From: Acidimicrobiia bacterium
Lineage (GTDB): Bacteria; Actinomycetota; Acidimicrobiia; IMCC26256; JAENVU01
NCBI GenBank assembly: GCA_031430375.1
Contig: JANPBJ010000149.1
Coordinates: 16,776-80,775, forward strand
Reading direction: 5' to 3'
DNA length: 64,000 nt
In this document: piece by piece, positions 1 through 19,656 of the stretch
Layout: each line of letters starts with the position of its first letter
Position numbering within the stretch: position 1 is the first letter of the stretch
Translations under genes and position numbers: made by a program
The notes under the pieces: generated by a model
What the model was told of the DNA's origin: nothing
Seen by the model: the letters and a program-made list of their open reading frames with translations, nothing else
Databases searched by the model: none

Positions 1-2496
<2,496 letters not shown>

Positions 2497-2500
<4 letters not shown>

Positions 2501-3153
2501 CGTTGCCCACGGCCCCGGCCGTCGTCGAACTCCAGATTGCCGACGAACCCGACGCGTGGCGCGCGGCGGGATTCACGGTGGTCGATGACATTGCACAGAT
2601 CGGTGCAATCACGATTCGACTCATCGGACGAGCCGAGGCGAAACGCATCCGGTCCTGGAGCTGGTCAGACCTTCCGGGCGATCCTCCCGACGATCCTGGC
2701 GGCACCGGGTCGATCGATGGCCTCGTCACTGCTGTCAAACCGTCGTCTCCGAACCCACCGGGTGCGCACGCGAACGGCAGCACGATCGTCGATCACGTGG
2801 TGGTCGTCACCCCGAACCTCGAGCGCACCACTTCCGCCTTCGCCGCGCGTGGACTCGACGTTCGCCGGGTACGCGACACCGATCAGTACGGTGCGCCGTT
2901 CCGCCAGGTGTTCTTCCGCGGCGGCGAGACGATCATCGAACTCATCGGTCCCGTAGAGCCTGCGAGCGACGACAGCCGGCCGGCGCACTTCTTCGGCTTG
3001 GCCTTCACCGTCGCGGATATCGATGCCACGGCCGCGCTCCTTGCTGACGGCGTCGGTCGGATCAAGGACGCGGTACAACCCGGTCGACGAATCGTCACCT
3101 TGCACCACGATCAGTACGACATCTCCGTTCCGATCGCGTTCATGAGCGCATAG
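2497..3153 (+). CDS. VOC/glyoxalase-like domain protein
   Basis: Track ORF with a TTG start overlapping the upstream TGA (TTGA). The C-terminal half (VDHVVVVTPNLERT...FFGLAFTVADIDA) resembles a glyoxalase/bleomycin-resistance fold. Confidence 0.55.
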
Positions 3154-3171
3154 CGGCTTCCCGAGTAGCGA

Positions 3172-4146
3172 TCACGAGACCGGCGGCTCCTCAACGGGCA
3201 GTGACCAGGCGACTCGGGTCTTGGTGCGCTCGTAACCCTGGCCTTCGTACAACGCGAGCGCACCGGTGGGATTCTCGGCATCCACGTCGAGGGCGGCGTA
3301 CTCCAGTCCCTCAACCGCAAACGCGCCCGCAGTCGCGCTCAGCAACGCGCGCGCCACACCCTGGCTACGCCAGGCGCGGCGCACCCCGAGTTGGTGGGTC
3401 CACCCTTCACGGAACCCAAGCGCGGGCCAATCGTCAGGGTGAATCGAGTTGAGCGCGTACCCCGCGATCGCGTCACCGTCGAGGACGAGATACGAGCAGT
3501 CGGGACGGAAGTTGTGGTGGCCGGTGACCCATGTGCCCCAGGTCTCGGCATCGAGTTCGCTCGACGCGAAATGATCCCGGAAGGCCTCGTTGTGAGCCAC
3601 CCGTATGGCGTCGTCACGGGTCACGTCGAAGGGTACGAGTTCCAGACCCTCGCGCAGCGCTATCGGCATCGCGCCGTCGGCGAGCGGGCGGCGCATCTCG
3701 TGGTAGTAGCGCAGCGGAGTGAACCCGAACGAGCGAAACAGATCGCTACGAGTGACATCGGCCTGTGATGCCGAAAGCTCCAACCATCCCGGACTCAACA
3801 ACTGCTGGTCGGCCGCGACCTCCCGCCCTCGTTCGGTCTGCCATGCCACCAGTTCCGCGCCCACGCCCATGCCGCGCACGTCCGGGACCACGGCACCGTC
3901 GAGCAACACGCGTCGTTGATGCGAGCTGGGAATACAGACCACCGTTCCCCAGCCGACTATTCGCCCGTCGCACCACCCCAGGCGCGCGTCGCGCGAGGCG
4001 TCGAAGTACGACAACCCCAGCTGTTCCTCCAGGTCGGCTCGCCCCAGCACCTCACCAGTTCGATCGACCGCCTCAACGATCGCGAGCGCGTCGACCCACT
4101 CATCCAGGTCGCCGTCAACCGGTGCCCGCCATTCCACCCGCATCAC
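3172..4146 (-). CDS. two-domain GNAT N-acetyltransferase (MshD-like architecture)
   Basis: 324 aa with two acetyltransferase-like halves joined by HEMRRPL. The second half carries the acetyl-CoA motif QLGVRRAWRSQGVARALL. The architecture recalls mycothiol synthase, but identity is not established. Confidence 0.7.
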   Translation of the reverse strand: MMRVEWRAPVDGDLDEWVDALAIVEAVDRTGEVLGRADLEEQLGLSYFDASRDARLGWCDGRIVGWGTVVCIPSSHQRRVLLDGAVVPDVRGMGVGAELVAWQTERGREVAADQQLLSPGWLELSASQADVTRSDLFRSFGFTPLRYYHEMRRPLADGAMPIALREGLELVPFDVTRDDAIRVAHNEAFRDHFASSELDAETWGTWVTGHHNFRPDCSYLVLDGDAIAGYALNSIHPDDWPALGFREGWTHQLGVRRAWRSQGVARALLSATAGAFAVEGLEYAALDVDAENPTGALALYEGQGYERTKTRVAWSLPVEEPPVS

Positions 4147-4182
4147 CTGATTCTGTCTGCTCCGATCCCTCGGATGGCGGAA

Positions 4183-5331
4183 CTACAGCCGTTCGATGAT
4201 CGTGACGTTCGCCTGGCCACCGCCTTCACACATCGTCTGGAGGCCGTAACGGCCGCCGGTGCGTTCCAGCTCGTTGAGGAGTGTGGTCATCAACCGCACG
4301 CCGGTGGCGCCCAATGGGTGACCGAGCGCTATTGCCCCACCGTTCACATTCACCTTGGCCATCTCCGCGCCGGTCTCCTTCGCCCATGCAAGGACGACCG
4401 ACGCGAAGGCCTCGTTGATCTCCACGAGGTCGATCTCGTCCAAGCTCATGCCGGATTTCTCGAGGGCGTAGGCCGTTGCCGGGATCGGTGCCGAGAGCAT
4501 GAAGATCGGATCGTCGCCGCGCACCGAGAGGTGATGGATGCGGGCCCGCGGCTTGAAGCCGTGTTCCTTCACCGCCCGCTCCGACGCGATGAGCATCGCG
4601 CTCGCGGCATCGGAAATCTGGGAGCTCACCGCCGCGGTGACCCGACCTCCTTCGATCAGCGGCTTCAGCGAACGGATCTTCTCCCAATTGGGTTCGCGTG
4701 GCCCTTCGTCAAAGGTCGCGTCGCCGAACGCAATGATCTCGTTCTCGAACCGTCCTTCGGCCCGAGCGCGGATCGCGCGCTCGTGGGATTGGACGGCGAA
4801 ATGTTCCATGTCGTCTCGGCTGATCCCCCACTTCTCTGCGATGAGCTCCGCACCGCGGAACTGACTCACCTCTTGGGTGCCGTACCGCTCCACCCAACCC
4901 GTGCTCGTGCTGAACGGATCGGTGAACCCGAACTGCTCGGCCACCGTCATCGCCGAGGAGATCGGGATCATGCTCATGTTCTGCACGCCCCCGGCGACCA
5001 CCACATCCTGGGTGCCACTCATCACGCCCTGCGCCGCGAAGTGCACGGCCTGCTGACTCGAGCCGCATTGCCGGTCCACCGTCGTTCCGGGGACCGACTC
5101 CGGGAGGCCCGCGGCGAGCCAACAGGTGCGGGCGATGTCGCCGGCTTGGGGACCAATCGCGTCGAGACACCCGAAGACCACGTCTTCTACGGCGGCGGGA
5201 TCGAAGTCGTTGCGCGTCACGATCTCTTTGAGCACGTGCGCGCCGAGATCGGCCGGGTGGACCTGGCTCAGCGAGCCGCCGCGTCGACCGACGGGAGTGC
5301 GGACGGCATCGATGATGTAAGCCTCGGACAT
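4183..5331 (-). CDS. acetyl-CoA C-acyltransferase (thiolase), FadA-type
   Basis: 382 aa. Motifs: VDRQCGSSQQAV (active-site Cys), NEAFASV, and NVNGGAIALGHPLGATG ... CEGGGQANVTIIERL. Confidence 0.9.
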   Translation of the reverse strand: MSEAYIIDAVRTPVGRRGGSLSQVHPADLGAHVLKEIVTRNDFDPAAVEDVVFGCLDAIGPQAGDIARTCWLAAGLPESVPGTTVDRQCGSSQQAVHFAAQGVMSGTQDVVVAGGVQNMSMIPISSAMTVAEQFGFTDPFSTSTGWVERYGTQEVSQFRGAELIAEKWGISRDDMEHFAVQSHERAIRARAEGRFENEIIAFGDATFDEGPREPNWEKIRSLKPLIEGGRVTAAVSSQISDAASAMLIASERAVKEHGFKPRARIHHLSVRGDDPIFMLSAPIPATAYALEKSGMSLDEIDLVEINEAFASVVLAWAKETGAEMAKVNVNGGAIALGHPLGATGVRLMTTLLNELERTGGRYGLQTMCEGGGQANVTIIERL

Positions 5332-5343
5332 GGTGTTCCCTTC

Positions 5344-5372
5344 TCAGGTGAGACGTCAGGTGAGACGTCAGG
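5344..5372. repeat. 12-bp tandem repeat TCAGGTGAGACG x2.4 filling the ACAD-thiolase intercistronic gap
   Basis: Read directly: tcaggtgagacg tcaggtgagacg tcagg. Each unit carries a minus-strand TGA, and the last is the stop codon of the upstream ACAD gene. Confidence 0.8.
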
Positions 5373-6336
5373 CGGGACGGTCAAGGATCGCACGAGCCAC
5401 GCGGTCGCGGTGCCACGCGGCATCGCCCCACGCGCCGGCGAGGGCCCACGTTCGCTTCATCCATAGGTGCAGATCATGTTCGTAGGAGTAACCGATCGCG
5501 CCGTGGCATTGCAGCGCGGTACTCGCCGCGAGCATCCCCGCGTCGGCAGCTTGGGCTTTGCCCATCGAGCAGTGCAGGGCCGCGTCGGGATCGTTGGTCG
5601 CGAGCGAGTGGGCCGCTCGGTACACAAGCGGGGCCGCAAACTCGAGCGCGATGCGTACGTTCGCGAGCTGGTGCTTGATCGCTTGGAATGACCCGATCGG
5701 CGAGCCGAACTGGCGGCGTTCGGTGGCGTACGCCACGGTCATATCGAGCATCTGGCGGGCGAGTCCGAGGAGCTGGGCGGAGTACCCGAGCGTTGCGCGC
5801 CAGAACGCGACCGAGATCTCGTCGCGTGTGAGCGGTCGGGAAGTGTTCGCTTCAACCAGGCGCGTGAGCCGACGGCTCGCGTCCACCGATGTGAGCGCCT
5901 CGAACGTCGCGCTCGAGCCGGTGGCGAGCTGCGCATCCGGCGCCAGTACCACGATCACATCGGCCGCGACTCCATACGGAATCACCGGATCGCCGGCGCT
6001 CACGGTCATCACACCATTCACGACATCAGGGTGTTCCAAGACCGCGAGGGGCGCACCCACCAACACATGCTCGACGAACGGCTCGGGCAACGCGACTCGC
6101 CCGGTCTCTTCTGCGAGCAGCACCACATCGAGTTCGCTCAGGCCGAGCCCGCCCGACACCTCCGGCACCAGAGCACCGAGCACCCCCATCTCGCCGAGCG
6201 CGTTCCACGCGCTCCCGCTGCGGCCGTCGGCGTTGCTCCAGGCGGCGCGCACCACACTCGGCGGACACTCCTTGGCGAGGAGATCGCGAACGGCGTCTCG
6301 AAACGCGAGCTGATCTTCGGTGAACGCGAACTGCAT
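5368..6336 (-). CDS. acyl-CoA dehydrogenase family protein, beta-type subunit of a heteromeric ACAD (FadE32/33-like)
   Basis: Track ORF 5368..6366. The likely start is ATG 6336 (MQFAFTEDQLAFRDAV), 4 nt after the upstream ACAD stop. ACAD C-terminal fold: RRQFGSPIGSFQAIKHQLA. Confidence 0.8.
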   Translation of the reverse strand: MQFAFTEDQLAFRDAVRDLLAKECPPSVVRAAWSNADGRSGSAWNALGEMGVLGALVPEVSGGLGLSELDVVLLAEETGRVALPEPFVEHVLVGAPLAVLEHPDVVNGVMTVSAGDPVIPYGVAADVIVVLAPDAQLATGSSATFEALTSVDASRRLTRLVEANTSRPLTRDEISVAFWRATLGYSAQLLGLARQMLDMTVAYATERRQFGSPIGSFQAIKHQLANVRIALEFAAPLVYRAAHSLATNDPDAALHCSMGKAQAADAGMLAASTALQCHGAIGYSYEHDLHLWMKRTWALAGAWGDAAWHRDRVARAILDRPA

Positions 6337-6340
6337 AGCG

Positions 6341-7483
6341 CTACTTTCTCGGTAGCCCGAGCACACGCTCGGCGATCACGTTGCGTTGGATTTCGTTGGT
6401 CCCGGCGTAGATCGGACCGGACAGCGCGAACTCGTAGCCCTTCATCCACGGCGATTCGAGCTCGGCTTCGTAGCCAAGGAGTGCCAGCGCAGTCTCGTGG
6501 AGACGCACGTCGAGCTCGGACCAGAACACTTTGGTCAGACTCGACTCGATTCCCGGCGGATCTCCGGCGGTCACACGCGTCACGGTCTGGAGGGTCTGCA
6601 GGCGGTACGCCTCGGCATCGATGTAGGCCCGGGTGACCTGATCGCGGAGGAGCGGATCCGGCGCGGCTCCAACACGATCCCGGTACAGCGCGACTAACCG
6701 GTCGGCCGTCGCGTTGAACCGACCGGGGCTGCGCAGGGTGAGGCCGCGCTCCGAGCCCGTGGTGGCCATTGCGACACTCCAACCCTGATCGACACCGCCG
6801 AGCACCAAGTCGTCGGTCACGAGTGCATCTTCGAAGAAGACTTCCGCGAACCCTTGGTCACCATCAAGACGACCAAACCCGCGCACGGTGACTCCGGGCG
6901 TGTCGAGCGGGACAAGGAAGTAGGTGAGGCCACGGTGGCGCTCCGCGGTGGGGTCGGTACGGAACAGTCCGAAGAGGTGGGTGCAGAACGCGCCGCGAGT
7001 GGTCCACGTTTTCTGGCCGTTGAGTCGCCAACCGCCGCCGGACTCGTCACGCGTTGCAGTGGATCGAATGGCCGCGAGATCGCTGCCCGCATCCGGCTCG
7101 GACCAGCCTTGACACCATGACTCTTCTCCGCTCGCCATTTTCGACAAGAAGCGATCCTGCTGATCCGCCGTCCCAAACTCGAACAGCGTGGGCGCGAGCA
7201 GGAAGATCCCGTTCTGGGTCACGCGTTGGGGCGCGGCCGCTCGGTAGTACTCCTCTTCGAAGATCAACCACTCCCACAGGCTGGCCCCGCGGCCGCCGTA
7301 CTGCTCGGGCCACGAAACGACGGCCCATCGAGCATCGAAGAGGGTTCGCTCCCACTCCAGATGGCGGGCAAATCCCTCGCGGGTGTCGCCACTCGGCAAC
7401 GGTTCGCCGGGAACATGCGCGGCCAGCCACTCCCGCAGCTCCGCCCGAAACGCCTGCTCCGCCGGGCTCCAGCTCAGCTCCAC
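6341..7483 (-). CDS. acyl-CoA dehydrogenase, alpha-type subunit (FadE31-like)
   Basis: 380 aa with a GTG start. Motifs: WCQGWSEPDAGSDLAAI, NGQKTWTT, YAGTNEIQRNVIAERVLGLP. Confidence 0.85.
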   Translation of the reverse strand: MELSWSPAEQAFRAELREWLAAHVPGEPLPSGDTREGFARHLEWERTLFDARWAVVSWPEQYGGRGASLWEWLIFEEEYYRAAAPQRVTQNGIFLLAPTLFEFGTADQQDRFLSKMASGEESWCQGWSEPDAGSDLAAIRSTATRDESGGGWRLNGQKTWTTRGAFCTHLFGLFRTDPTAERHRGLTYFLVPLDTPGVTVRGFGRLDGDQGFAEVFFEDALVTDDLVLGGVDQGWSVAMATTGSERGLTLRSPGRFNATADRLVALYRDRVGAAPDPLLRDQVTRAYIDAEAYRLQTLQTVTRVTAGDPPGIESSLTKVFWSELDVRLHETALALLGYEAELESPWMKGYEFALSGPIYAGTNEIQRNVIAERVLGLPRK

Positions 7484-7654
7484 GTCAACATCCGCCTCGG
7501 GTTCATACCGGCCGGGACGCTACCCGCCGACCTGACGAGCCATCAGATCGTCGGAGGGAGAGCGTCGAGGGGAGCGGGTCGAAGGACGACCGTGAACGTT
7601 GACCGAGTTCTGGGCGGGAGGAGACGCCCGAACCACTGGCGCGAAATCGGCGCG

Positions 7655-7760
7655 GGCCGATGTCAGATGACGTGACGCCTGGGTGGCCGTGCGACCTCGC
7701 TGACGAGCGCTTGTCGGATAAGTGGCGGTCAGCACCACCCACGCGACAAGCAGTCGCGGG
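7655..7760 (+). repeat. interspersed ~100-nt repeat, copy A (TTGTCGGATA box plus CGCGAC-AAGCA-GTCGCG hairpin)
   Basis: The 52-nt core 7681..7732 is 49/52 identical to the reverse complement of 23321..23372. Flanking TGACGTGACGCCTGGGTGG and the hairpin at 7742..7758 are also shared with locus B. Confidence 0.85.
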
Positions 7761-7820
7761 GGCCAGGTGTCATGAACGAACGCCTGGTTGACGCGATCGA
7801 TCGAGCGACGCCGAATCTGG

Positions 7821-7870
7821 CGTTCGTTGTCCGTACGTCCCTCCAGGGAAGGGAATCCGCACAATGAACA
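7821..7870. repeat. 50-nt hairpin element, copy P (10-bp AT-rich stem CGTTCGTTGT / ACAATGAACA)
   Basis: Same length and arms as 30268..30317. The interior starts CCGTA and ends CGC in both copies, with an inner hairpin TCCCT-ccaggga-AGGGA. Confidence 0.7.
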
Positions 7871-8075
7871 GCGCAGACGCGTCGCCGTTGTGGAGTGTGA
7901 TTGCCATTGGCGCTGCCGTAGACCCGCCCCGCGTGTCCTGCCACCAGCGCCAACGACACGCAAGCAGGCGTCGACCGACCCAGTGTGTGGGCCGCTTGAC
8001 CCATTTTCTCCGGTTTTCGACCCATATAGGGTGCTTCGCCAGGGATCGCAGGCGGCCGGTTGAAGGGGCACGAAC

Positions 8076-9947
8076 ATGTTGAAGTTCCGCGTTCGATTGT
8101 TGGCGATCGTCTGCGCGCTCGGTGCGGGGCTGGTCCCCGCGCTCGTCCTCGACACCAGCGCACCCGCCCTATCGAACCCGACGTTGCCCTACCTCACGGT
8201 GGACCACACCATCAGCTCCCAACCGTGGGTCCCGGTCGTGGCAGGGAGCACCACGAACGCGTTCGACCTCGACGGCGGCACATTCTTGCCCTTCGACAAC
8301 GCGTTCTGGTTCGTTGACGACGGCGGGAATCGAGCGTATGAAGTTGACCGCACGACCGGAAAACTCCGGCGCACCATCACACAATCTGCGTTCTCCGCGG
8401 CTCAGCCCGTCGGCGGCGGCACCGCGGCGGGTCTCGGCCGTTCGGATGCACTTCAGTCGGCTGCGTACGACGTGTTTACCGACAGCCTGTACATCTTTTC
8501 CGCCAACTGTTGCGGCGTCGCGCCCTTCCAACCAACTGCATTTCGACTCAAGCGCGACGGTGCTGGAAAGTTCCAAGTCGAGTCGTACCAAGCGCTTCCC
8601 GAAGGCACCAACCCTGCAGCCGCGGGCTACCGGTATGGCTCCGGCCTGTACTTCGGGAAGGGCACCAAGATCCGAACGTACGACTACGCGATGAACACCA
8701 TCGGACCCGACATCAACATCATCGGTGCAGGAACATCCATCACCGGAATGGATTTCCCCGACGCCGACACGCTGCTCCTCACCACGACGCTGAATCAGTT
8801 AGTGAAGGTCTCAACCGCAGACTGGACGGTGGTCAGCGGGTGGACGTTCGACCTCGGGCGTCTCGGAATCCTCGACCCACGATCGGTCGATGCGTCCGGC
8901 GATCAGATCTTTATCGCCGACGGCTACGACCTGCGACCACCCACGGACCCGCTGAAGTACGCGGTCTTCGTGCTGAACCTCAGTGAGACCCCGCCCCCCG
9001 TCGCGTCGTTCGCGCCCCACGTGACCCGCGGCGCGAGCCCGTTGGCGGTGTGGTTCGTCGATCACAGCATCCGCGCCGAAACCCACCTCTGGAACTTCGG
9101 CGACGGCTCTCCCACCTCCACCGAGATCAGCCCGGCGCACATCTACACCACCCCCGGCACCTTCACCGCGACGCTGCAGGTCACGAGCGTCGGTGGCACC
9201 GACAGCGCGAGCAAGGTCATCACCGTGTTGCCCGGAACCGCGCGTACCGGTGGATACACCCTCGACGGTTTCGGCGGTCTCCACCCGTTCAAAATCGGTA
9301 GCACGCCGGTCGCGCCCGCGGCCCGCGGCGCGGTCTACTGGCCGGGCTGGGACATCGCTCGCGGCGCGGCCAGCCTCCCCGACGGGTCCGGCGGCTACAC
9401 CCTCGACGGCTACGGCGGTCTCCACCCATTCCGGATCGGAGCCGGAACCACTCCGCCGGCCGCAAAGAACGGTCCGTACTGGCCCGGAGTCGACGTCGCA
9501 CGCGGCGTCGCACTCATGCCCAACGGTAAGGGCGGACTCTTGGTGGATGCCTACGGCGGGATCCACCGCTTCCGGGTCGGAGCCAGCGCCCTGCCTGGGC
9601 GGCCAACCGGGAGCCCGTACTGGTTGGGTCGGGACATTGCCCAAGGCATCACGATCCTGCCCGACGGATCCGGCGGTTACGTGATCGACCGGAACGGCTC
9701 GCTCCACGCGTTCACTATCGGTGCGAATCCCTCACCCCCCGCTCCGACCAACGTCTGGGCCGCACCGGCGAGCCGGCCCGGTCGGGGTGTGTCACTCCTC
9801 AGCACCGGGACCGGCGGCTACACCATCGACGGCACCGGTGGAGTTCACCGCTTCGCAGTCACGAAGATGCCGCCCGGAACCTCGGGGATCGCCACCTGGC
9901 CCGGGTGGGACATCGCCCGCGACATCGTCGTACTCCCCGCGAACTAA
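8076..9947 (+). CDS. secreted protein: N-terminal unknown domain, PKD domain, five ~47-aa C-terminal repeats
   Basis: Signal-peptide-like N-terminus MLKFRVRLLAIVCALGAGLVPALV. PKD signature WNFGDGSPTS...HIYTTPGTFTATLQVT at aa ~307-385. Five repeats of GGYTLDG-GGLHPF...YWPGWDIARG at aa 392-623. GAAGGGG lies 7 nt before the ATG. Confidence 0.8.
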   Translation: MLKFRVRLLAIVCALGAGLVPALVLDTSAPALSNPTLPYLTVDHTISSQPWVPVVAGSTTNAFDLDGGTFLPFDNAFWFVDDGGNRAYEVDRTTGKLRRTITQSAFSAAQPVGGGTAAGLGRSDALQSAAYDVFTDSLYIFSANCCGVAPFQPTAFRLKRDGAGKFQVESYQALPEGTNPAAAGYRYGSGLYFGKGTKIRTYDYAMNTIGPDINIIGAGTSITGMDFPDADTLLLTTTLNQLVKVSTADWTVVSGWTFDLGRLGILDPRSVDASGDQIFIADGYDLRPPTDPLKYAVFVLNLSETPPPVASFAPHVTRGASPLAVWFVDHSIRAETHLWNFGDGSPTSTEISPAHIYTTPGTFTATLQVTSVGGTDSASKVITVLPGTARTGGYTLDGFGGLHPFKIGSTPVAPAARGAVYWPGWDIARGAASLPDGSGGYTLDGYGGLHPFRIGAGTTPPAAKNGPYWPGVDVARGVALMPNGKGGLLVDAYGGIHRFRVGASALPGRPTGSPYWLGRDIAQGITILPDGSGGYVIDRNGSLHAFTIGANPSPPAPTNVWAAPASRPGRGVSLLSTGTGGYTIDGTGGVHRFAVTKMPPGTSGIATWPGWDIARDIVVLPAN

Positions 9948-9984
9948 AACCCCGCGAACTAAAACCCCGCGAACTAAAACCCGC
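9935..9984. repeat. 15-bp tandem repeat CCCCGCGAACTAAAA x3.3 spanning the stop codon of the PKD gene
   Basis: Read directly at 9935-9949, 9950-9964 and 9965-9979, plus a partial fourth unit. Each unit re-encodes P-A-N-stop in the gene frame. Confidence 0.85.
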
Positions 9985-9998
9985 AGGGGTCCTCGCCC

Positions 9999-11597
9999 TT
10001 ATGCCTGTTCCGTCGCAATGGCTTTGGCCCAGCGGTAGTCGGCCTTGCCCGACGGCGAGCGCACAATCTCATCGACGAGGTGCACTTCCTTCGGAACTTT
10101 GTAACCGGCGATGGAAGCACGGGCATGGTCCGCGAGGGATTGGACGGTGGGGGTGGTCGTCCCCCGTGCCTTGACCACTGCGGCGACGCGCTCGCCCCAA
10201 CGCTCATCAGGCACGCCGACGACGACGACGTCGAACACATCGGGATGCGACTTCAACGCGAGCTCAACCTCTTCGGGGAAGATCTTCTCGCCACCGGAGT
10301 TGATGCTGACCGACCCGCGCCCGAGCAACGTGATCTGGCCGTCGTCCTCTACCCGGGCCATGTCACCGGGCATCACCCACCGCTCGCCGTTGAGCACTAC
10401 AAACGTGGCCGCGGTCTTGGCCTCGTCCTTGTAGTAGCCGAGCGGCATGTAGCCCTTGCGCGCCAGGTGTCCGATCACTCCCGCACCCGGCACGAGCGGC
10501 ACACCCTGATCGTCGATCACCATGGTGTGGTCACCCATCGTGAAGCGCGGCTTGCCTTCGGCGTCCGAGCTGGACACCGAACCCTGGAAGCCGGTCTCTG
10601 ACGCACCGAGTGAATCCACGATCATCACGTTGGGGAGCACTTCACCGATCTTCTGTTTCACCGCGGGCGACAGAATCGCACCGCCGGACCCGATGACGAA
10701 GAACTTCGAGAGGTCGTACTCCACGCCTCCATCTTCGAGGGCCTCGATCAACGGTCGGGCCATCGCGTCGCCGACCAAGCTGATCGTCATCACGTCTTCT
10801 CGCACCACCGTGCGCCAGACCTCGTGCGGGTCCATCTTCTTCTGCGCGCTCAGCACCAACGTGTTGCCCTGGAGCAACAACATGAGCGCGACCCATTGGG
10901 CGGCTCCATGCATCAACGGCGCGATCGGGAACCCCACCAGCGTGCCGCCGTTTCGCGCCACCTCCACCACGGCATCAGGCGAGTCGAACACTCCGCCGCC
11001 GTTCATCAGGGCGCCGATCGTGGAGTGGAAGAAATCTTCCTGGCGCCACATCACACCCTTGGGCATTCCCGTGGTGCCGCCGGTGTAGAGCATGTAGAGG
11101 TCGTCACCGCTGCGCGGCAATGCGTACCGGTCCGGCGAGGCCGCCGAGAGCACGTGTTCGTACTCCACTGCTCCAATCGCGTCCAGGTCCTCATCCGTTC
11201 CGTCCTCGATCGACACGAAGGTCGTGAGTTTCGGAGCTTGATCGCGCACCGCCGCAATACGCGGGATGAACTCGCGACCGTGGACCAGCGCCACCAGATC
11301 CGCGTTGTCGAACAGGTACGCGAGTTCGGCCTCCACGTAGCGGTAGTTCACGTTGATCGGAACCGCACGGGCCTTCCACGCGCCGAACATCGCCTCGACC
11401 CATTCGACTCCGTTATAGGCATAGATGCCGACGTGGTCACCGACCTTGACGCCCGAGGCAATGAGATGGTTCGCGAGACGTGACGCGCGCTCGTCGAGTT
11501 CTGAAAACGTGAGGCGACGATCGCCACACACCACCGCGGTGCGATCTGGCACTGTGCTGGCGACCGCTTCGAACAAGTCGGCGAAGTTCCATTCCAT
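9999..11597 (-). CDS. AMP-forming acyl-CoA synthetase (FadD-type)
   Basis: 532 aa. Motifs: LYTGGTTGMPKGV (AMP-binding P-loop), GYYKDEAKT, GDMARVEDDGQITLLGRGS, SPSGKADYRW. Confidence 0.9.
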   Translation of the reverse strand: MEWNFADLFEAVASTVPDRTAVVCGDRRLTFSELDERASRLANHLIASGVKVGDHVGIYAYNGVEWVEAMFGAWKARAVPINVNYRYVEAELAYLFDNADLVALVHGREFIPRIAAVRDQAPKLTTFVSIEDGTDEDLDAIGAVEYEHVLSAASPDRYALPRSGDDLYMLYTGGTTGMPKGVMWRQEDFFHSTIGALMNGGGVFDSPDAVVEVARNGGTLVGFPIAPLMHGAAQWVALMLLLQGNTLVLSAQKKMDPHEVWRTVVREDVMTISLVGDAMARPLIEALEDGGVEYDLSKFFVIGSGGAILSPAVKQKIGEVLPNVMIVDSLGASETGFQGSVSSSDAEGKPRFTMGDHTMVIDDQGVPLVPGAGVIGHLARKGYMPLGYYKDEAKTAATFVVLNGERWVMPGDMARVEDDGQITLLGRGSVSINSGGEKIFPEEVELALKSHPDVFDVVVVGVPDERWGERVAAVVKARGTTTPTVQSLADHARASIAGYKVPKEVHLVDEIVRSPSGKADYRWAKAIATEQA

Positions 11598-11600
11598 TGA

Positions 11601-12800
11601 CTATTTCCTCACAATCACGCAGCTGCCATGACCGAACAGGCCCTGGTTTACCGTGAGCCCGACTCGGGCCCCTTCAACTTGTCGGGCGCCCGCCTCACCG
11701 CGGACCTGCCAGGCCAGTTCGCACACTTGGGCGATGGCCTGGGCCGGTACCGCTTCGCCGAAACACGCGAGTCCGCCGCTCGCATTCACCGGGATCCGCC
11801 CACCAATGGTGGTGTCGCCGTCACGCACCAGCCGTTCCGCCTCACCGGGCTTGCACAGCCCGATGTTCTCGTACCAGTCGAGTTCGAGCGCGGTCGAAAG
11901 GTCATACACCTCGGCGAGGTCGAGATCCTCAGGTCCGATCCCGGCCTGTTCGTAGGCGGCGTACGCAATCGAGTCGCGAAAGCCGCGCTCGGGAGGCGTG
12001 ACACCGAACGCAGAGTCGGTGGCGAAGTTCGGCATGTCGATCAGGGTGTTCGGGTAGCTCGGCGTCACGGTACTGACCCCTGCGACGCGCACCGGGTCGC
12101 TGATGCCGTGCGCCTTGGCGTAATCCATCGAACACACGATGAGCGCAGCCGCACCATCCGAGGTTGCGCAAATCTCGAGGAGGCGTAGCGGATCCGAGAC
12201 AATCGGCGACGCGGCCACATCTTCGAGCGTCACTTCCTTGCGGAACCGCGCGTAGGGGTTCTCGAACCCGTGACGCGCATTCTTGACCTTCACCGCGGCG
12301 AAGTCCTCCTGGGTTGCCCCGTGGAGTTCCATTCTCCGCCGTGCGTACATCCCGAAATAGGTGGGGTTCGTTGCACCGAGAAGACGGAATCGCAACCAAT
12401 CCGGATCGTCACCGCGCTCCCCCGCGTTGGGCGCGAGGAAACCCTTCGGCGTGGTGTCGGCACCAACCACCAACGCCACATCGACCATGCCCGCAAGAAT
12501 CTGGGCGCGGGCCGCGTTCAGCGCGGTCGCTCCGCTCGCACACGCGGCGTACGACGACGAGACCGAGGCGCCCTGCCATCCCAACGCCTGCGCGAACGTG
12601 GCGCCCGCGACGTATCCGGGATACCCGTTACGCATCGTGTCGGCGCCACACACCAGCTGCACGTCGCGCCAGTCGACGTTGGCATCGGCAAGCGCAGCAC
12701 GAGCCGCGACCACGCCGTACTCCACGAAGTTTTTGCCCCATTTTCCCCAGGGATGCATCCCCACTCCGAGGACTGCGATGTCGCGCGCGTTCTCGCTCAT
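11601..12800 (-). CDS. SCP-x/lipid-transfer-protein-type thiolase-like protein
   Basis: Track ORF 11601..12818. The likely start is ATG 12800 (MSENARDIAVLGVGMHPWGKW), which overlaps the upstream stop as ATGA. Thiolase-fold residues SSYAACASGATAL and NASGGLACFGEAV. Confidence 0.85.
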   Translation of the reverse strand: MSENARDIAVLGVGMHPWGKWGKNFVEYGVVAARAALADANVDWRDVQLVCGADTMRNGYPGYVAGATFAQALGWQGASVSSSYAACASGATALNAARAQILAGMVDVALVVGADTTPKGFLAPNAGERGDDPDWLRFRLLGATNPTYFGMYARRRMELHGATQEDFAAVKVKNARHGFENPYARFRKEVTLEDVAASPIVSDPLRLLEICATSDGAAALIVCSMDYAKAHGISDPVRVAGVSTVTPSYPNTLIDMPNFATDSAFGVTPPERGFRDSIAYAAYEQAGIGPEDLDLAEVYDLSTALELDWYENIGLCKPGEAERLVRDGDTTIGGRIPVNASGGLACFGEAVPAQAIAQVCELAWQVRGEAGARQVEGARVGLTVNQGLFGHGSCVIVRK

Positions 12801-13225
12801 GCGCTCACCGGCTTCCATTGCCAGATCACGAACTCACTGTCGTCGTCTTCGAAGAGGGTGCCCAGCGTGAGTTCAACTTCGGTCCCCACGGTGAGAGAAG
12901 CGGGGTCGAACTCGGGTGCCAGCGGCCCGAGCACCACCATCTGCTCGTCGGCGAGCTCGACCGCCACCACGGTGTACGGCACAAACGGGTCCGCGGCTAC
13001 ATACGGGGCGGGGGGTTGATAGTGGTTGGTAGTCCATGACCAGACCCGACCACGCCGGGAGAGCTCAACCTCCTCGAGTTCTTCGGTGGGCGCGGCAGGA
13101 TTGCGCGAGAAGGCCAGGTTCTTCGGGAAGAAGAAACTGCCGGTCTCCGCACCCCGACTCGCGAGCAGTGCGGGCTCGTCGCCGAGGGTGAACCAGCCAT
13201 CAACGGCGGCAACTCGGGTCTTCAT
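12797..13225 (-). CDS. DUF35 OB-fold protein (partner of SCP-x thiolase), Zn-ribbon cysteines absent
   Basis: 142 aa with the typical RGRVWSWTTNHY...YTVVAVELADE OB-fold core. The whole protein contains no Cys, so the usual CxxC...CxxC ribbon is degenerate. Confidence 0.75.
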   Translation of the reverse strand: MKTRVAAVDGWFTLGDEPALLASRGAETGSFFFPKNLAFSRNPAAPTEELEEVELSRRGRVWSWTTNHYQPPAPYVAADPFVPYTVVAVELADEQMVVLGPLAPEFDPASLTVGTEVELTLGTLFEDDDSEFVIWQWKPVSA

Positions 13226-13468
13226 GGCGGGGCAGCCTACAGAGCCAATCCCCGGAATCGTTCGGTCGGGGCGGTCGCCTCCGACGCGGCAATCACGGGC
13301 CCCAACTCGGCGGCGATCTGGCGGACCTACGCCAGGTACTTGGCGTTGATCCCCGTCTTCACCTCGAAGGGTTGTGTGGATTTTGTTGTCGGGATGTCGT
13401 GCAAACCTGACACGGGCGTCATACGATGCGCGAGCGGCGCCGGGGGGCCCGCACCAGGGGGTCGAAGC

Positions 13469-15064
13469 ATGAAGGTACGACGTCAGACAACGTTGCGGAC
13501 CGCGATCGTCGCCGGTATCGCGATCGGGACCGCGGTCCTGACCGGCTGCACTGGAGCCGATAGCAGCGGCGGGGGTGGTGACAACCTCCGCTATGGGTAC
13601 GACCTGGAGACCCAGTTCACCAACACCTTCGACCCGGGTGGGAAGAACGGGTCGACCGGTGATTGCGACACGATCGTGACGTCGTTCATCTACGACGGCC
13701 TACTGCGGCGCGACCAGGCAACCGGCGAGTCGATCCCCGGCATCGCGACGAGTTGGGAGGTGACCGGCGACGAGAAGCGCTCGATCACGTTCCACCTGCG
13801 TAACGACGTCGAGTTCTCCGACGGCGAGAAGCTCGATGCGGCTGCGGTGAAAGCGAGCTTGGATCACAACAACGAGAACGACCAACTTTCGGGGCTCGAC
13901 CACATCGACAATGTCGAGGTCGTGGATTCAACGACGGTCACGGTCAACCTCAAGGACGACCAGTCGACGCCGTTCATCTACAACATGGGCGCCGGGCGCG
14001 ACGGTCAGATCCTGTCGCCGAAGTCACTCAAGACCGCGGCCAAGAAGCCGGTGGGGTCGGGACCGTTCATGCTCGAGAGCTTCACGCCCGGCCAGGGCAT
14101 GGTGCTGGTCAAGAACCCGAAGTACTGGGACACCCAGAGCTATGACTTCCCCGGCATCGAGTTCGTGCAGGCCGGTACCGGACCGCCGGCAGTCCTGCGG
14201 TTCAAGGCCGGCGACCTCGATCTCGTGCGGTTCGAAGCCGAATCGCTGCCAGTCCTGCGCAAGGATGCCAACGCCAATGTGGTGATCAAGGCCACCGAGG
14301 CGTACCTCCAGTTTCAATTCCGGCTCGGCTACAACGACGGACGGACCACCCCGTTCGCGAATCCGCTCGTCCGTAAGGCGGTGCGGTTCGCGATCGATCC
14401 GAAGAAGATCAACGATCTCGTGCAACTCGGTGAAGGCGCGATCGCCACCCAGGCTCTTCCCGAGGAGTCGCCCGGTTACAACGGCGACATCGCAGATGAC
14501 TACGCCTATGACCCGGACGAGGCGAAGCGGTTGCTGACCGAGGCCGGTTACCCGGACGGGTTCGAGTTCACGATGGTGATCCCCGGTCCGGGCATCGAGA
14601 ACATGAACCGACAGGGCGAGCTCCTGCAAAACATGCTCGCGGATGTCGGGATTACCGCGAAGATCGTTCCGGTGCAAGGCAACGACATCGCGACCAACTA
14701 CTACATCAGCGGTGGCGGCGACGCGTTTGCCGCCGCGCGGTTGGCATCGAGCTTTTACCCCGGCGCGTACTTCGACCAGTTCGGCAAGTTCCAGTTCGTT
14801 CCAATCTGGAACAAGGCGCAGCGAGACGATATTGATGACCTCACGCTCCGAGCCCAGGGTTCGAAGGACCCCGCGGAGACTGCCCGGTTGACCCAGGAGG
14901 CGGCCAAGATCGTGAGCGACGAGGCGCTCGAAGTGCCGATCGCGTTCATGCCGCAGTTCCTCGCCACGGCGAAGGATCGCGTCGGTGGGGTCGTCGGCGG
15001 TCAGCGCAACATTTGTGACCCGCCCGATCTCTCGGGCTTGAAGATGAAGGCCGGGAAGACTTAG
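13469..15064 (+). CDS. ABC transporter substrate-binding lipoprotein, family 5 (peptide/nickel type)
   Basis: Track ORF 13340..15064. The likely start is ATG 13469 (MKVRRQTTLRTAIVAGIAIGTAVLTGCTG, lipobox LTGC) with AGGGGG 8 nt upstream. SBP_bac_5-like body. Confidence 0.85.
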   Translation: MKVRRQTTLRTAIVAGIAIGTAVLTGCTGADSSGGGGDNLRYGYDLETQFTNTFDPGGKNGSTGDCDTIVTSFIYDGLLRRDQATGESIPGIATSWEVTGDEKRSITFHLRNDVEFSDGEKLDAAAVKASLDHNNENDQLSGLDHIDNVEVVDSTTVTVNLKDDQSTPFIYNMGAGRDGQILSPKSLKTAAKKPVGSGPFMLESFTPGQGMVLVKNPKYWDTQSYDFPGIEFVQAGTGPPAVLRFKAGDLDLVRFEAESLPVLRKDANANVVIKATEAYLQFQFRLGYNDGRTTPFANPLVRKAVRFAIDPKKINDLVQLGEGAIATQALPEESPGYNGDIADDYAYDPDEAKRLLTEAGYPDGFEFTMVIPGPGIENMNRQGELLQNMLADVGITAKIVPVQGNDIATNYYISGGGDAFAAARLASSFYPGAYFDQFGKFQFVPIWNKAQRDDIDDLTLRAQGSKDPAETARLTQEAAKIVSDEALEVPIAFMPQFLATAKDRVGGVVGGQRNICDPPDLSGLKMKAGKT

Positions 15065-15095
15065 GTCTCGGTCTAGGTCGAGGAGCGCAGGAACA

Positions 15096-16043
15096 GTGGG
15101 GGCCTATGTAGCGCGCAGGCTCGGCGCTCTGGTCCCGCTGCTCGTCATCATCTCGTTCATTGTCTTCTCGCTCTCGCAACTGTTGCCCGGAGATCCGGCG
15201 ATCGTGCTCGCCGGTGGACAGAAGGCCACCCCGGAGGGCATCGCGCGCGCCCGCGAGAAGCTGCACCTGGACGAATCGTTCGTCGAGCAATACATCATCT
15301 GGCTCGGCGACACCGCGCAGGGTGATCTCGGTGAATCGTTCTTCGACCACCGTACCGTGGCGGAGTCCATCTCGAGTCGGTTTCCGGTCACGCTGTCCCT
15401 TGCGCTCGGTGCCTTGTTCTTGACGGTCCTCATCGGGGTTCCGCTCGGCATCCTGGCCGCGGTACGCCAAGGCGGCATCGTCGACCGACTCATCACCATG
15501 GTGTCGAGTGTCGCGCTCGCGATGCCGGACTTCTGGTTGGGAATGATCCTGATCTCGCTGTTTGCCGTGACCTTCCGGGTGCTGCCGTCGGGCGGCTATG
15601 AGGGACTGTTGAGCTCTCCAGCCGGGTGGGCCACCCACCTCTACCTGCCCTGGATCGCGATGGGTATCCCCGGCGGAGCGGGCCTGGCTCGCCAGGTCCG
15701 GGGCGCGATGATCGACGCGTTGGAACAGGACTACATCCGCACGGCCGAGTCCAAGGGGTTGCGACGGCGGGTGGTGGTGTTCAAGCACGCATTGAAGAAC
15801 GCGTCCCTCGCGCCGGTGACGGTTCTAGGTATCGGCTTTGCCTACATGCTCGGCGGCTCCGTGATCATCGAACGCATTTTCACGTTGCCCGGCATGGGCC
15901 AGTACTTCTTCATCGCGCTGTTCAAGAAGGACCTCCCCGTGATCCAAGGGGTCGTCCTCCTCAGCGCGTTGATCTTCGTCGTCCTCAATCTCGTCGTGGA
16001 TGTCCTGTACGCCTACCTCAACCCGAAGGTCAGGTTGGGATGA
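15096..16043 (+). CDS. ABC transporter permease (DppB/OppB-like)
   Basis: 315 aa, multi-TM, with the EAA-type loop YIRTAESKGLRRRVVVFKHALKNA. Confidence 0.9.
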   Translation: MGAYVARRLGALVPLLVIISFIVFSLSQLLPGDPAIVLAGGQKATPEGIARAREKLHLDESFVEQYIIWLGDTAQGDLGESFFDHRTVAESISSRFPVTLSLALGALFLTVLIGVPLGILAAVRQGGIVDRLITMVSSVALAMPDFWLGMILISLFAVTFRVLPSGGYEGLLSSPAGWATHLYLPWIAMGIPGGAGLARQVRGAMIDALEQDYIRTAESKGLRRRVVVFKHALKNASLAPVTVLGIGFAYMLGGSVIIERIFTLPGMGQYFFIALFKKDLPVIQGVVLLSALIFVVLNLVVDVLYAYLNPKVRLG

Positions 16044-16933
16044 CGGACGCAGCGCTGGAGCCCGACAAGCAGCTGGATGCGACCGGGCCCTCCCCGTGGG
16101 GCCGTGTCCTACGGCGCTTCGTGCGGAGCGGTCCGGCGATGACCGGGCTCGTGATCGTGGTGCTGCTGGTCTTGACGGCCCTGTTCGCGTCCGTGCTGGC
16201 GCCTTACGGTCAGGGCCCGGACTTCGAACCCGATCTCGGTCCAACGGCCAAGCATTGGCTCGGGACGAACAGCATCGGCCGGGACCTGCTGACGCGGCTG
16301 ATCTATGGCGCCCAGTCGTCGATGTTCGTCGCGTTCTTGGTCGTCACGATCGCAACGTCGATCGCGCTGGTGCTCGGATTGGTATCCGGCTATTTCGGCG
16401 GCTGGGTCGGCGCGGTCATTGACCGGTGTATGGACGCGCTGTTCACCTTCCCGCCGTTAACCCTCGCCCTGGCGATCGCCGCGCTGCTCGGCCCGAGCCT
16501 CACCAACGCGTCGCTTGCGATCGCGGTGGTCTTCGTCCCGGGGCTGATGCGGGTCATTCGTTCTCAAGTCCTGGCGGTTCGGGAGGAGTCGTTCATCGAG
16601 GCGGCTCGTTCGGTGGGGGCCAAGGATGCTCGGATGCTGCGCAAGCATGTACTGCCGAATGTGGTCTCTCCTGTGATCGTGCAGGCCGCGCTGGCCTTCG
16701 GGTACGCCATCAGCGCCGAGGCCGGCCTCTCGTTTCTCGGTTTGGGCGTGACCCAACCGACATCGAGCTGGGGCGTGATGTTGGCAGAGGCCTACGCCAA
16801 GATCCTCGAGTCCCAGTGGCTCCTGGTGCCTCCGGCGTTCGCGATTCTGTTGGCGATCCTCGCGTTCAACCTGGTGGGCGACGGCCTCCGCGACGCCCTC
16901 GGCCGTGAAGCCATCGCCGTGGAAGGACCGTGA
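16040..16933 (+). CDS. ABC transporter permease (DppC/OppC-like)
   Basis: 3' part of track ORF 15626..16933. ATG 16040 overlaps the upstream stop (ATGA). Sequence: MTDAALEPDKQLD...FIEAARSVGAKDARMLRKHVLPN. Confidence 0.9.
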   Translation: MTDAALEPDKQLDATGPSPWGRVLRRFVRSGPAMTGLVIVVLLVLTALFASVLAPYGQGPDFEPDLGPTAKHWLGTNSIGRDLLTRLIYGAQSSMFVAFLVVTIATSIALVLGLVSGYFGGWVGAVIDRCMDALFTFPPLTLALAIAALLGPSLTNASLAIAVVFVPGLMRVIRSQVLAVREESFIEAARSVGAKDARMLRKHVLPNVVSPVIVQAALAFGYAISAEAGLSFLGLGVTQPTSSWGVMLAEAYAKILESQWLLVPPAFAILLAILAFNLVGDGLRDALGREAIAVEGP

Positions 16934-19050
16934 CCGTGAGCGCGAGCGAGGTGCCGCTGCTAGAGGTCGTGGATCTCACAGTTGAGTTCGGTACCTCGGC
17001 TGGCACGGTGCGTGTCGTCGATGGTGTGAGCTTCGCGGTCAATCGCGGTCAGACCCTCGGTCTCGTCGGTGAGAGTGGTTGCGGGAAGAGCGTCTCCTCC
17101 CTCGCAGTCATGGGACTGATCCCGCGGCGGAACGCTCGCGTCCGTGCAACTACGCTCCGGTTAGGCGACCATGACCTCCGGACCATCGGCCACGCAGAGC
17201 TCCGCGCACTACGGGGTCCCGAGATGGCAATGATTTTCCAGGAACCGATGACGAGCCTGAACCCGGCGTTCACCGTCGGCAATCAGATCGCCGAGACGGT
17301 ACGCGCCCACCAGCGCGTCGGACGTTCGGCCGCCAATGCCAAGGCCGTGGAGATGCTCGACCGCGTAGGGATTCCCGATCCACACCGGCGGGTCAAGGAC
17401 TATCCGCACGCGTTCTCGGGAGGGATGCGGCAGCGGGCAATGATCGCGATGGCGCTGGCCAACGATCCGAAGTTGCTGATCGCGGATGAACCCACCACTG
17501 CGCTCGACGTCACGATCCAGGCTCAGATCCTCGAGCTGCTCCGGACCCTGCAACACGAGACCGGCATGGCGATCGTCTTCGTGACTCACGATCTCGGCGT
17601 GGTCGCCGACATCTGTGACCGGGTGGTGGTGATGTACGCGGGCCAGGTGGTGGAGGAGTCACCGCTCGACCCGCTGTACGCGTCACCCCGGCATCCGTAC
17701 TCCGCTGGGCTCCTGGCGTCGATGCCCCAAACCGCCTTGCCCGGCCAGCCGCTCACCGTCATTCGCGGTCAGGTCCCGAGCCCGCAGGATTGGCCCCATG
17801 GATGCCGGTTCGCCGAGCGTTGCGACCATTCCGAGCCTCGTTGTGTGGAGGATCCGGTGGCATGGACCGCAATGGCCGACGCCGGAGTCCGTTGCGCGCG
17901 CGCGGAGTCCATCACACTCGTTGGCACGGCCGAGCTCGGCGGATCGCGAACGAATTCGGCGCGTGGAGATTCGGCTCGGGGGGATTCGGCCGGTGTGGAT
18001 CCGGCTCGTGCGCCCGCGGATGCACTGGTCTCGGTCGTCGGTCTCGCCAAGGCGTTTCCGGTGCGCAGCGCGTTGTTGCGACGTCAGCTCGGCCTTGTGC
18101 GTGCCGTCGACGGTGTGGACTTCGAGATCGCCGCCGGGGAGACGCTGGGATTGGTCGGCGAGTCGGGGTCGGGCAAGTCCACGGTGGCGCGGCTCGTGTT
18201 GCGGTTGATCGAGCCGAGTGCAGGAAGGGTCTTGGTGGCCGGACTGGATGTCACGGCGCTCGCAAAGGGGCCCTTACGTAACGCACGCGGCGAGATGCAG
18301 ATGGTGTTTCAAGACCCCTACTCGTCACTCGATCCGCGCCAGACCATCGCCGAGGCGATCGGGGAGCCGATCGAAGTTCACCGCGGTGTGAAGGGCCGCG
18401 TGCGTGACCAACGCGTCACCGAGTTGCTTGCGCACGTGGGAATCGGCGCCGACGCCCTCCGCCGGTATGCGTACGAGTTCTCGGGCGGGCAACGTCAGCG
18501 CATCGCGATCGCTCGCGCGCTCGCCCTGGACCCGAAGCTCGTGGTGCTGGACGAACCGGTCTCATCCCTCGATGTGTCGACCCAATCGCAGGTGATCAAC
18601 CTACTCATCGATCTTCAGGATCGGCTCGGTCTCACGTATCTGTTCATCGCGCACGATCTTTCGGTCGTCCGCCATATCTCGGATCGCATCGCGGTGATGT
18701 ACCTCGGCCGTATCGTCGAGCAGGGACCGGCGGAAGAGGTCTATACCCGCCCGCGCCACCCCTACACCGAGGCGTTGCTCTCCGCGATTCCGCTTCCGGA
18801 TCCCCACTATCAACGCAACCGGCCGCGTATTGTTCTGCACGGCGATGTGCCCAGTCCGCTTGCGCCACCTTCCGGCTGCCGGTTCCGAACTCGGTGCCAG
18901 TACGCGATGGACGTGTGTGCGCACGAAGATCCCCCGGCGTTCAGTGCGCCGGGAGGAACCACGGTGGCGTGCCACTTGCACACCACCGGTCCCCAACTCG
19001 CAGGCGAACCCGTCACCGGGCTGGCCGTCGGGACAGGGACGCCACGGTGA
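16930..19050 (+). CDS. fused double ABC ATPase (DppD-DppF fusion)
   Basis: 706 aa with a GTGA overlap. Two Walker A motifs ([16 protein letters not shown]), two signature motifs ([16 protein letters not shown]) and two oligopeptide C-terminal domains ([16 protein letters not shown]). Confidence 0.9.
17953..18012 (+). repeat. degenerate 15-bp in-frame tandem repeat (4 units) in the inter-ATPase linker
   Basis: Units aattcggcgcgtgga / gattcggctcggggg / gattcggccggtgtg / gatccggctcgtgcg, encoding [20 protein letters not shown]. Confidence 0.7.
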
Positions 19051-19082
19051 CATGCGACCACGGTCGCAGAATGGGGAGAGAC

Positions 19083-19562: not shown

Positions 19563-19656
19563 CCGGATTGGTCAGCTGAAGAGGGCGGCGTGGGTGACCC
19601 GTGCGAGCCACGTCGCGAGCGCGGTGTAAGCCAGGGTGTCCTAAAACTGAACGCGC

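Follow-up and report, generated by a model that had tools for sequence, protein, structure and literature searches.

A family of 47-residue repeats predicted to form a five-bladed beta-propeller at the C-terminus of a PKD-containing putative exoprotein from Acidimicrobiia

We analyzed a 64,000-nucleotide stretch of contig JANPBJ010000149.1 from an Acidimicrobiia bacterium (hereafter, the window), in which the forward-strand gene 8076..9947 encodes a 623-residue protein that ends in five tandem 47-residue repeats. The repeats belong to a family that is uncatalogued in Pfam, NCBIfam, PHROGs and the PDB sequences, and a five-bladed beta-propeller is strongly supported as the predicted fold of the C-terminal module (C-module) that they make up. 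From its N-terminus on, the full-length protein would consist of a Sec signal peptide, a first propeller with about five blades, PKD as a spacer, and the C-terminal five-bladed propeller, with both propeller folds coming from structure prediction. The advance is modest, though genuine. It consists of a propeller-repeat family of considerable size that is uncurated and confined to poorly known lineages of Gram-positive bacteria, and whose behaviour is that of a carbohydrate-binding or wall-anchoring module. The propeller fold and the accessory-module logic are themselves ordinary. Since the same module is attached to many secreted enzymes, it probably fastens them to sugars of the cell wall or to other sugars.

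The repeat family and its predicted fold

A single-blade hidden Markov model (HMM), built from 170 blades and with the consensus GGYVLDGFGGLHPFAIGSGAAPPAATGGPYWPGWDIARGVALLPDGT, detected exactly five units in the 8076..9947 protein, at 55-84 bits each. The units start at residues 392, 439, 486, 533 and 580, that is, with a period of 47 residues:

9249..9389, + strand: blade repeat 1, residues 392-438, canonical (GGYxLDGxGGLHPF ... YWPGWDIARG), 81.5 bits
9390..9530, + strand: blade repeat 2, residues 439-485, canonical, 84.0 bits
9531..9671, + strand: blade repeat 3, residues 486-532, canonical with substitutions (YWLGRDIAQG), 65.4 bits
9672..9812, + strand: blade repeat 4, residues 533-579, hairpin retained, YW-x-G-W-D-I-A-R loop lost, 55.2 bits
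9813..9944, + strand: blade repeat 5, residues 580-623, 44 residues, ending with the protein (TWPGWDIARD...LPAN), 65.0 bits

All ten pairs of repeats were 30-62% identical, with z = 7.0-24.6 against shuffled sequence, hence the repetition is far beyond chance. A preliminary description of this DNA, made from the sequence alone, had reported five C-terminal repeats of about 47 residues, and these numbers bear it out. The consensus of the repeat is GGYVLDGYGGLHPF-x7-PP-x6-YWPGWDIARGVALLPDG; no further copies were found elsewhere in the window. Across 1,449 blades of the family, the most conserved positions were G2, Y3, L5, D6, G7, G9, G10, H12 and F14 of the hairpin, P22, and Y30, W31, G33, W34, D35, I36, A37 and R38 in the loop and at the start of the last strand. 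We next compared 44 five-blade arrays from the orthologues and paralogues that combine the N-terminal domain, PKD and the C-module. The hairpin was kept in 86-100% of their blades, and the strict YW...DIAR pattern of the loop was found in 86%, 93%, 59%, 0% and 25% of blades 1 to 5, respectively, the loop of blade 4 being lost in all 44 arrays. In other architectures, the loop was kept in 64-73% of blades 2-4. The 8076..9947 protein has an intact or nearly intact loop in blades 1, 2, 3 and 5, and has lost that of blade 4.

For profile searches and modelling, we aligned 34 five-repeat modules (alignment A1) drawn from orthologues and from unrelated architectures. At E<=10, none of these 34 sequences matched a propeller, lectin, wall-binding or enzyme family in Pfam, and WD40, Kelch, NHL, FG-GAP, PQQ, YWTD/Ldl_recept_b and DUF5122 were likewise unmatched by the repeats. 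Neither NCBIfam nor PHROGs gave a match, and the A1 profile retrieved nothing meaningful from the PDB sequences (best E 0.34). A literature search, which included the motif string GWDIARG and Acidimicrobiia cell-wall propellers, found no report on the family. A "single-motif propeller" family from Frankia (Smock et al., 2016) was considered and set aside, as its supplement shows WD40 motifs and not the 47-residue repeat. No well-annotated Pfam family, which would have contradicted the earlier description, thus emerged for the repeats, even with a 34-sequence profile.

AlphaFold2 (AF2) modelling of residues 386-623 from A1 returned a predicted local distance difference test score (pLDDT) of 96.2 and a predicted template-modelling score (pTM) of 0.92, all five models reaching a pLDDT of at least 95.5. 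The model is all-beta, with one strand pattern repeated five times. A Foldseek search of the PDB gave 286 matches at E<=1e-3, and the 50 listed were all beta-propellers; none was close (TM <=0.55). BFVD matches were also propellers only, of a generic kind. The suggestion that the repeats might be blades of a small propeller therefore holds as a prediction, and one made with high confidence. Blade 4 lacks the loop, yet the model is confident there, indicating that the loop is not required for folding. By analogy with propeller lectins (PMC11186620), a dispensable loop would be consistent with functional sites whose number differs from one propeller to the next.

To gauge the extent of the family, we searched 1.84 billion 50%-identity representatives exhaustively with HMMER and the A1 profile, and obtained 1,887 proteins at E<=1e-3, 1,335 at E<=1e-10 and 756 at E<=1e-30. 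The single-blade HMM was applied to 241 family proteins; contiguous arrays had five blades in 178 cases and six in 73, and the number of blades per protein was five in 124, six in 70 and 10 in 21 (doubled modules). The five- and six-blade arrays (P0001-P0251) suggest that the same repeat may build both five- and six-bladed propellers. A scan of GTDB species genomes yielded 557 confirmed stretches. The best 80 loci lie in about 30 metagenome-assembled genomes (MAGs), nearly all of uncultured Acidimicrobiia plus Dormibacterota, with 4-7 loci per MAG. The C-module of the 8076..9947 protein has its nearest genome match in locus L003, at 86% identity over the module. The distant members that carry a name belong to Acidimicrobiia, Thermoleophilia (Solirubrobacteraceae), Frankiales and Candidatus Dormibacteria, and are labelled "hypothetical protein" or after their other domain. 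The preliminary description mentioned similar repeats in actinobacterial surface proteins; this was right in spirit, in that the family occurs in Acidimicrobiia and other Actinomycetota.

We also noted close homologues (L009, L026, L031, L034, L039, L042, L055, L063 and L076; 45-66% identity over the module) in MAGs labelled Bifidobacteriaceae, Bifidobacterium breve or Burkholderiales. The family is otherwise centred on Acidimicrobiia, and these cases look like the product of mislabelling or contamination of the bins, not genuine occurrences.

Domain partners and a possible glycan-binding role

We propose, with a probability of roughly 0.5, that the C-module ties exoenzymes to the wall or to a polysaccharide surface by multivalent glycan binding, a reading that comes from architecture and analogy. 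That the module binds carbohydrate of some kind is likely. Sugar binding by the module, its targeting to walls, and what the loop and the N-terminal domain do are inferred as follows. The C-module would be a non-catalytic, multivalent, lectin- or carbohydrate-binding module (CBM)-like unit that holds the 8076..9947 protein, and other exoenzymes bearing it, on a polysaccharide surface, the likeliest surface being peptidoglycan, or a wall glycopolymer associated with it, whether on the producer or on nearby cells. Each blade would have its structural core in the near-universal GYxLD..G.LH hairpin, and the YW-x-G-W-D-I-A-R loop, with its aromatic, acidic and basic residues, would provide up to one sugar site per blade. 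The N-terminal propeller would then be the working end, either carbohydrate-active or ligand-specific.

The module lies within 25 residues of the C-terminus in 194 of the 241 family proteins, and an N-terminus resembling a signal peptide was seen in 168 of the 219 members that start with Met. Its domain partners were counted in two sets. The first came from a word-indexed search and comprises proteins that have only the C-module in common with the 8076..9947 protein:

GH18 (YaaH-like): 12 proteins
Peptidase M23: 9 proteins
CHAP: 5 proteins
DUF5122: 4 proteins
GH25: 3 proteins
PF01522 deacetylase: 2 proteins
Peptidase S8: 2 proteins
CAP, C39-like, FN3 and others: fewer

The second set is unbiased and comprises 131 representatives:

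DUF5122 propeller: 18/131
Peptidase M23: 7/131
Peptidase S8: 7/131
TIG: 6/131
FG-GAP: 5/131
PQQ-type propellers: 4/131
CHAP: 3/131
GH5: 3/131
GH18, SpoIID, YkuD, CAP: 2/131 each
GH25, GH9, GH43: 1/131 each
Phosphatases: several

Ig-like domains were also among the commonest partners in the unbiased set, beside DUF5122 propellers and S8 proteases. In all, more than 20 different catalytic domains carry the module, and the spectrum is broader in the unbiased set. The module is therefore promiscuous, an accessory found across secreted proteins. Among its partners, the peptidoglycan-active domains (M23, CHAP, GH25, GH18/YaaH-like, SpoIID, YkuD and PF01522 deacetylase) stand out, without being the sole ones. 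The C-terminal position, the signal peptides, the peptidoglycan-active partners and the 4-7 loci per MAG together amount to accessory-module behaviour, which favours a glycan tether. So does the recurrence of the same Y/W/W/D/R loop blade by blade, which may reflect a repeated-site logic; beta-propeller lectins are built from 40-50-residue repeats with one recognition motif each (PMC11186620).

Some homologues with the N-terminal propeller and PKD end instead in CBM96 (P0113, P0081 and P0023) or CBM_4_9 (P0101), in the slot that follows PKD, which argues that the repeat propeller is positionally interchangeable with bona fide CBMs. CBM96 is an experimentally defined alginate-binding module (PMC9971899). 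Support for glycan binding is thus indirect, through the accessory-module architecture and the positional swap with CBM96 or CBM_4_9; the earlier proposal of a cell-surface binding module gains the same indirect support, from domain architecture and CBM replacement.

The same swap could point to a different target, namely an exogenous polysaccharide (chitin, cellulose, an alginate-like or other exopolysaccharide, or necromass glycans), on which the module would concentrate enzymes on food polymers rather than anchor them to the producer's own wall. GH5, GH9, GH43 and GH18 are among the partners, and a working domain followed by PKD and a C-terminal binding module is the classical layout of polysaccharide degraders. 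However, a single substrate-specific CBM would not be expected also on L,D-transpeptidases (YkuD), SpoIID, M23, CHAP, S8 proteases and phosphatases, and the breadth of partners suits a common surface better than one nutrient polymer. We consider a food-polymer CBM unlikely, though the strongest of the competing explanations.

A platform for protein-protein interaction or self-assembly, which would dock proteins on a surface layer or envelope, or oligomerise, with no sugar binding, is more unlikely again. Most of the propellers retrieved by Foldseek (WD40, G-beta, LRP6 YWTD) serve as platforms for protein interaction; the frequent Ig-like, TIG, FN3, FG-GAP and DUF5122 partners are typical of adhesins, and the conserved H, D and W could be a structural network. 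Yet the high identity between repeats and the presence of the same loop in most blades are closer to a multivalent lectin than to asymmetric protein-binding propellers, and the exchange with bona fide CBMs also speaks against a protein ligand. Lastly, the module might itself be an enzyme, like the five-bladed GH43, GH32 and GH62 glycosidases or the glutaminyl cyclases. Many five-bladed propellers are enzymes, and HHpred matched Gp45 of phage phi11 to a glutaminyl cyclase propeller. Five-bladed enzyme propellers, however, have a single asymmetric site and little internal repetition, whereas the blades here are 30-62% identical to one another; moreover, no Pfam enzyme family was matched by any of the 34 members at E<=10, the blade number varies between five and six, and the module is an accessory to those more than 20 catalytic domains. 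An enzymatic C-module is therefore very improbable.

Several observations weigh against a multivalent glycan tether. No homologue in the family has a known ligand. The repeated H, D and W could have a purely structural role, of the kind known from the tetrad of WD40 repeats, so loop conservation alone is no proof of sites. That the blades close into a ring, and that the loop sits on a propeller face, is presumed. Clearly peptidoglycan-directed domains occur in only about 13% of the representatives in the unbiased census, and a general tether to surfaces or substrates explains the census of partners no less well than specific binding to peptidoglycan does. The module was not found in phage lysins or tail proteins, among which Acidimicrobiia phages are barely sampled: a tblastn search of 50,697 phage genomes and searches of PHROGs and IMG/VR were all empty, and independent support for wall binding from phage proteins is therefore missing. 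Furthermore, the neighbouring genes are of beta-oxidation type and uninformative on function.

A bolder version of the glycan-tether reading is that the repeat constitutes a second, independent class of five-bladed propeller lectin ('PropLec5B') that serves as the main non-covalent means by which exoproteins of Acidimicrobiia, and of related uncultured Actinomycetota and Dormibacterota, are anchored to the wall, and that recognises a lineage-specific wall glycopolymer. We regard this as speculative and rather doubtful. If true, it would provide a functional counterpart of the SLH, CWB2 and choline-binding modules in a lineage of essentially unknown envelope biology.

The gene, its N-terminal propeller and its surroundings

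The open reading frame (ORF) 8076..9947 is a complete coding sequence with an ATG start and a TAA stop. The features outside the repeats are:

8062..8068, + strand: Shine-Dalgarno-like GAAGGGG, 7 nt ahead of the ATG, read from the sequence
8076..9947, + strand: coding sequence, 623 residues plus TAA, with orthologues and conserved synteny as its basis
8076..8168, + strand: Sec-type signal peptide, residues 1-31, predicted cleavage after APA (heuristic)
8169..8975, + strand: predicted N-terminal beta-propeller, residues 32-300, about five four-stranded blades by strand count, distantly Phytase-like/SdiA-regulated
8976..9239, + strand: PKD domain, residues 301-388, with the Pfam match at residues 324-384 (9045-9227)
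9935-9982, no strand assigned: 15-bp tandem repeat CCCCGCGAACTAAAA x3.2, Tandem Repeats Finder (TRF) score 96, 100% matches

The exact protein sequence was not on record in an exact-sequence lookup; full-length orthologues, 38-85% identical, were found in Acidimicrobiia MAGs. The N-terminus, MLKFRVRLLAIVCALGAGLVPALVLDTSAPA followed by LS after the cleavage site, runs from a K/R n-region through a hydrophobic core (12-residue Kyte-Doolittle mean of 2.6) to an A-x-A site by heuristic inspection, which revealed neither a lipobox of the usual form nor a twin-arginine motif. In homologues, the consensus of this region is xAxA followed by LSNP. The protein is therefore probably secreted. Pfam found PKD as the one domain in the whole protein, with PF18911 at 45.7 bits (cut-off 27) and PF00801 at 33.9 bits (cut-off 23.5), both above the gathering threshold over residues 324-384; NCBIfam gave nothing significant, and the PDB sequence matches were likewise PKD domains (2kzw and ColH). 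The signal peptide (by its heuristic layout) and the single PKD domain of the preliminary description are thus both confirmed.

The N-terminal region of about 270 residues had been described as having no nameable motif. It is not featureless: an AF2 model based on an alignment of 25 homologues (A2) reached a pLDDT of 93.1 and a pTM of 0.91, and Foldseek matched the model to propellers only, which predicts a second beta-propeller. The top TM-scores were those of the E. coli YjiK C-terminal domain (3qqz, TMt 0.61) and SMP30 (4gnc, TMq 0.57), and further matches included luciferin-regenerating enzyme and NHL domains. In Pfam, the domain of the 8076..9947 protein itself had no significant match to Phytase-like or SdiA-regulated; among the 25 homologues, 15 matched Phytase-like PF13449 (best E 7.2e-10) and two matched SdiA-regulated, and homologue P0044 scored 36.6 bits against a PF13449 cut-off of 27.6. 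A2 contains invariant polar and aromatic residues and a near-invariant vicinal Cys-Cys (SGNCC), compatible with a putative ligand or active site. The Cys-Cys pair (S-A/G-N-C-C) maps to 8508-8513 of the window, residues 145-146 and A2 positions 118-119. Vicinal disulfides are uncommon, and in extracellular proteins they are often found beside ligand sites.

Three homologues outside the window (P0023, P0048 and P0075) carry two copies of the N-terminal propeller per polypeptide, with PKD domains between them. CBM96 was confirmed between the two propellers of P0023; in P0048 and P0075, it is a precomputed Pfam annotation only. The duplicated N-terminal propellers argue that this domain is the working unit and that the C-terminal modules are interchangeable.

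Gene 8076..9947 stands alone on the + strand and is monocistronic by the orientation of its neighbours, as had been supposed. Upstream lie a minus-strand pair of acyl-CoA dehydrogenases and a thiolase; downstream are a convergent AMP-binding enzyme and then a thiolase-like gene. The same gene order is conserved in orthologous contigs whose identity is 85%, 63% or lower. Positions 1-20000 of the window hold acyl-CoA dehydrogenases, thiolases and an AMP-binding CoA ligase, with 8076..9947 inserted on the opposite strand, and one orthologous contig (L002) additionally has a ChsH2-like OB-fold protein and CoA-transferases nearby. Taken together, these genes resemble a lipid or steroid side-chain beta-oxidation cluster.

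The 592-bp upstream spacer (7484-8075) had been described as repeat-rich, which was not the case: it contains two modest inverted repeats and one weak 14-bp x2.9 TRF row, with no direct-repeat families and no credible ORF. A riboswitch or other RNA in this spacer was sought and rejected, as the window gave no Rfam match at gathering score and a snoRNA match (E 0.42) was at chance level. In the 85%-identical orthologue (L001, 5005-5982), a 249-residue short-chain dehydrogenase/reductase (SDR) gene occupies the position of the spacer; a decayed SDR gene was considered, and tblastn found no remnant in the window. The part of the spacer of most note here is 7559-7985. The L003 spacer is of similar length, with conservation only in a 55-bp island (window 7656-7710, 85% identity).

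At the other end of the gene, the 15-bp repeat takes in the final four codons and the TAA stop and extends over most of the 51 bp that separate this stop from the convergent gene 9999..11597 (-), so that the stop-codon-containing tandem repeat reported earlier is real, and perfect. Every copy carries an in-frame TAA, and a change in copy number would leave the protein unaltered. L001 (7926-7950) has two imperfect copies only, which makes the expansion look recent. On the minus strand, the repeat forms terminator-like hairpins followed by T-runs just past the stop of 9999..11597 (-); the count in our scan equalled the shuffle expectation.

Significance and comparison with known systems

If binding is confirmed, the repeats would define a new family of carbohydrate-binding or wall-anchoring modules with a propeller fold, of about 1,900 clusters at 50% identity, all of which are now called "hypothetical" or take their name from a different domain of the protein. 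Secreted enzymes could then be better annotated, by the hundred, in the uncultured Acidimicrobiia that abound in soil and freshwater. The family would also offer a handle on the chemistry of the Acidimicrobiia cell envelope, and would give lectin engineering and the study of propeller evolution another natural five-bladed scaffold of high symmetry, next to tachylectin-2. For 8076..9947, the label "PKD domain-containing protein" gives way to a layout that can be tested: a working propeller, a spacer, and a propeller for targeting.

The SLH, LysM, SH3b, GW, CWB2, choline-binding and LGFP modules are repeat-based, mostly terminal, and found on many secreted enzymes and paralogues per genome, notably peptidoglycan hydrolases. 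The 47-residue family shows the same sharing pattern; these modules differ from it in fold and sequence, none matches the C-module in Pfam, and wall binding by the C-module would be a property shared by inference. CBM96 and CBM_4_9 occupy the same C-terminal, post-PKD slot in homologues of the N-terminal domain. Their folds are unrelated to propellers, and the ligands of CBM4/9 are glucans and xylans. The N-terminal domain has its predicted propeller fold in common with Phytase-like (PF13449) and SdiA-regulated (PF06977, YjiK 3qqz) proteins, families that themselves lack a well-established biochemical function. Gp45 of phage phi11 is a five-bladed propeller that binds wall teichoic acid decorated with N-acetylglucosamine (GlcNAc) (PMC4876445), and is thereby a further precedent for the proposed glycan binding. 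It is a viral baseplate protein, whereas the C-module has no sequence relative in the phage collections, and we liken the two by description.

The closest parallel is tachylectin-2 (PropLec5A, PDB 1TL2), of the only recognised class of five-bladed lectins (PMC11186620), which likewise consists of five tandem 47-residue repeats folded into a five-bladed propeller. Homology was considered and rejected: hhalign of A1 against 1TL2 gave a probability of 0.13% over 8 aligned columns, the Tachylectin Pfam family was unmatched by the 34 modules and tachylectin-2 was absent from the PDB profile matches (both at E<=10), and 1TL2 was not among the top 50 Foldseek matches of the C-module. We therefore keep tachylectin-2 as an analogy only. 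The motifs differ, and tachylectin-2 is a stand-alone animal lectin, whereas the C-module is an accessory of multidomain bacterial exoproteins. In tachylectin-2, each repeat gives one site for GlcNAc or N-acetylgalactosamine (GalNAc), through which bacterial surface glycans are recognised, and by analogy the same working model might apply to the C-module.

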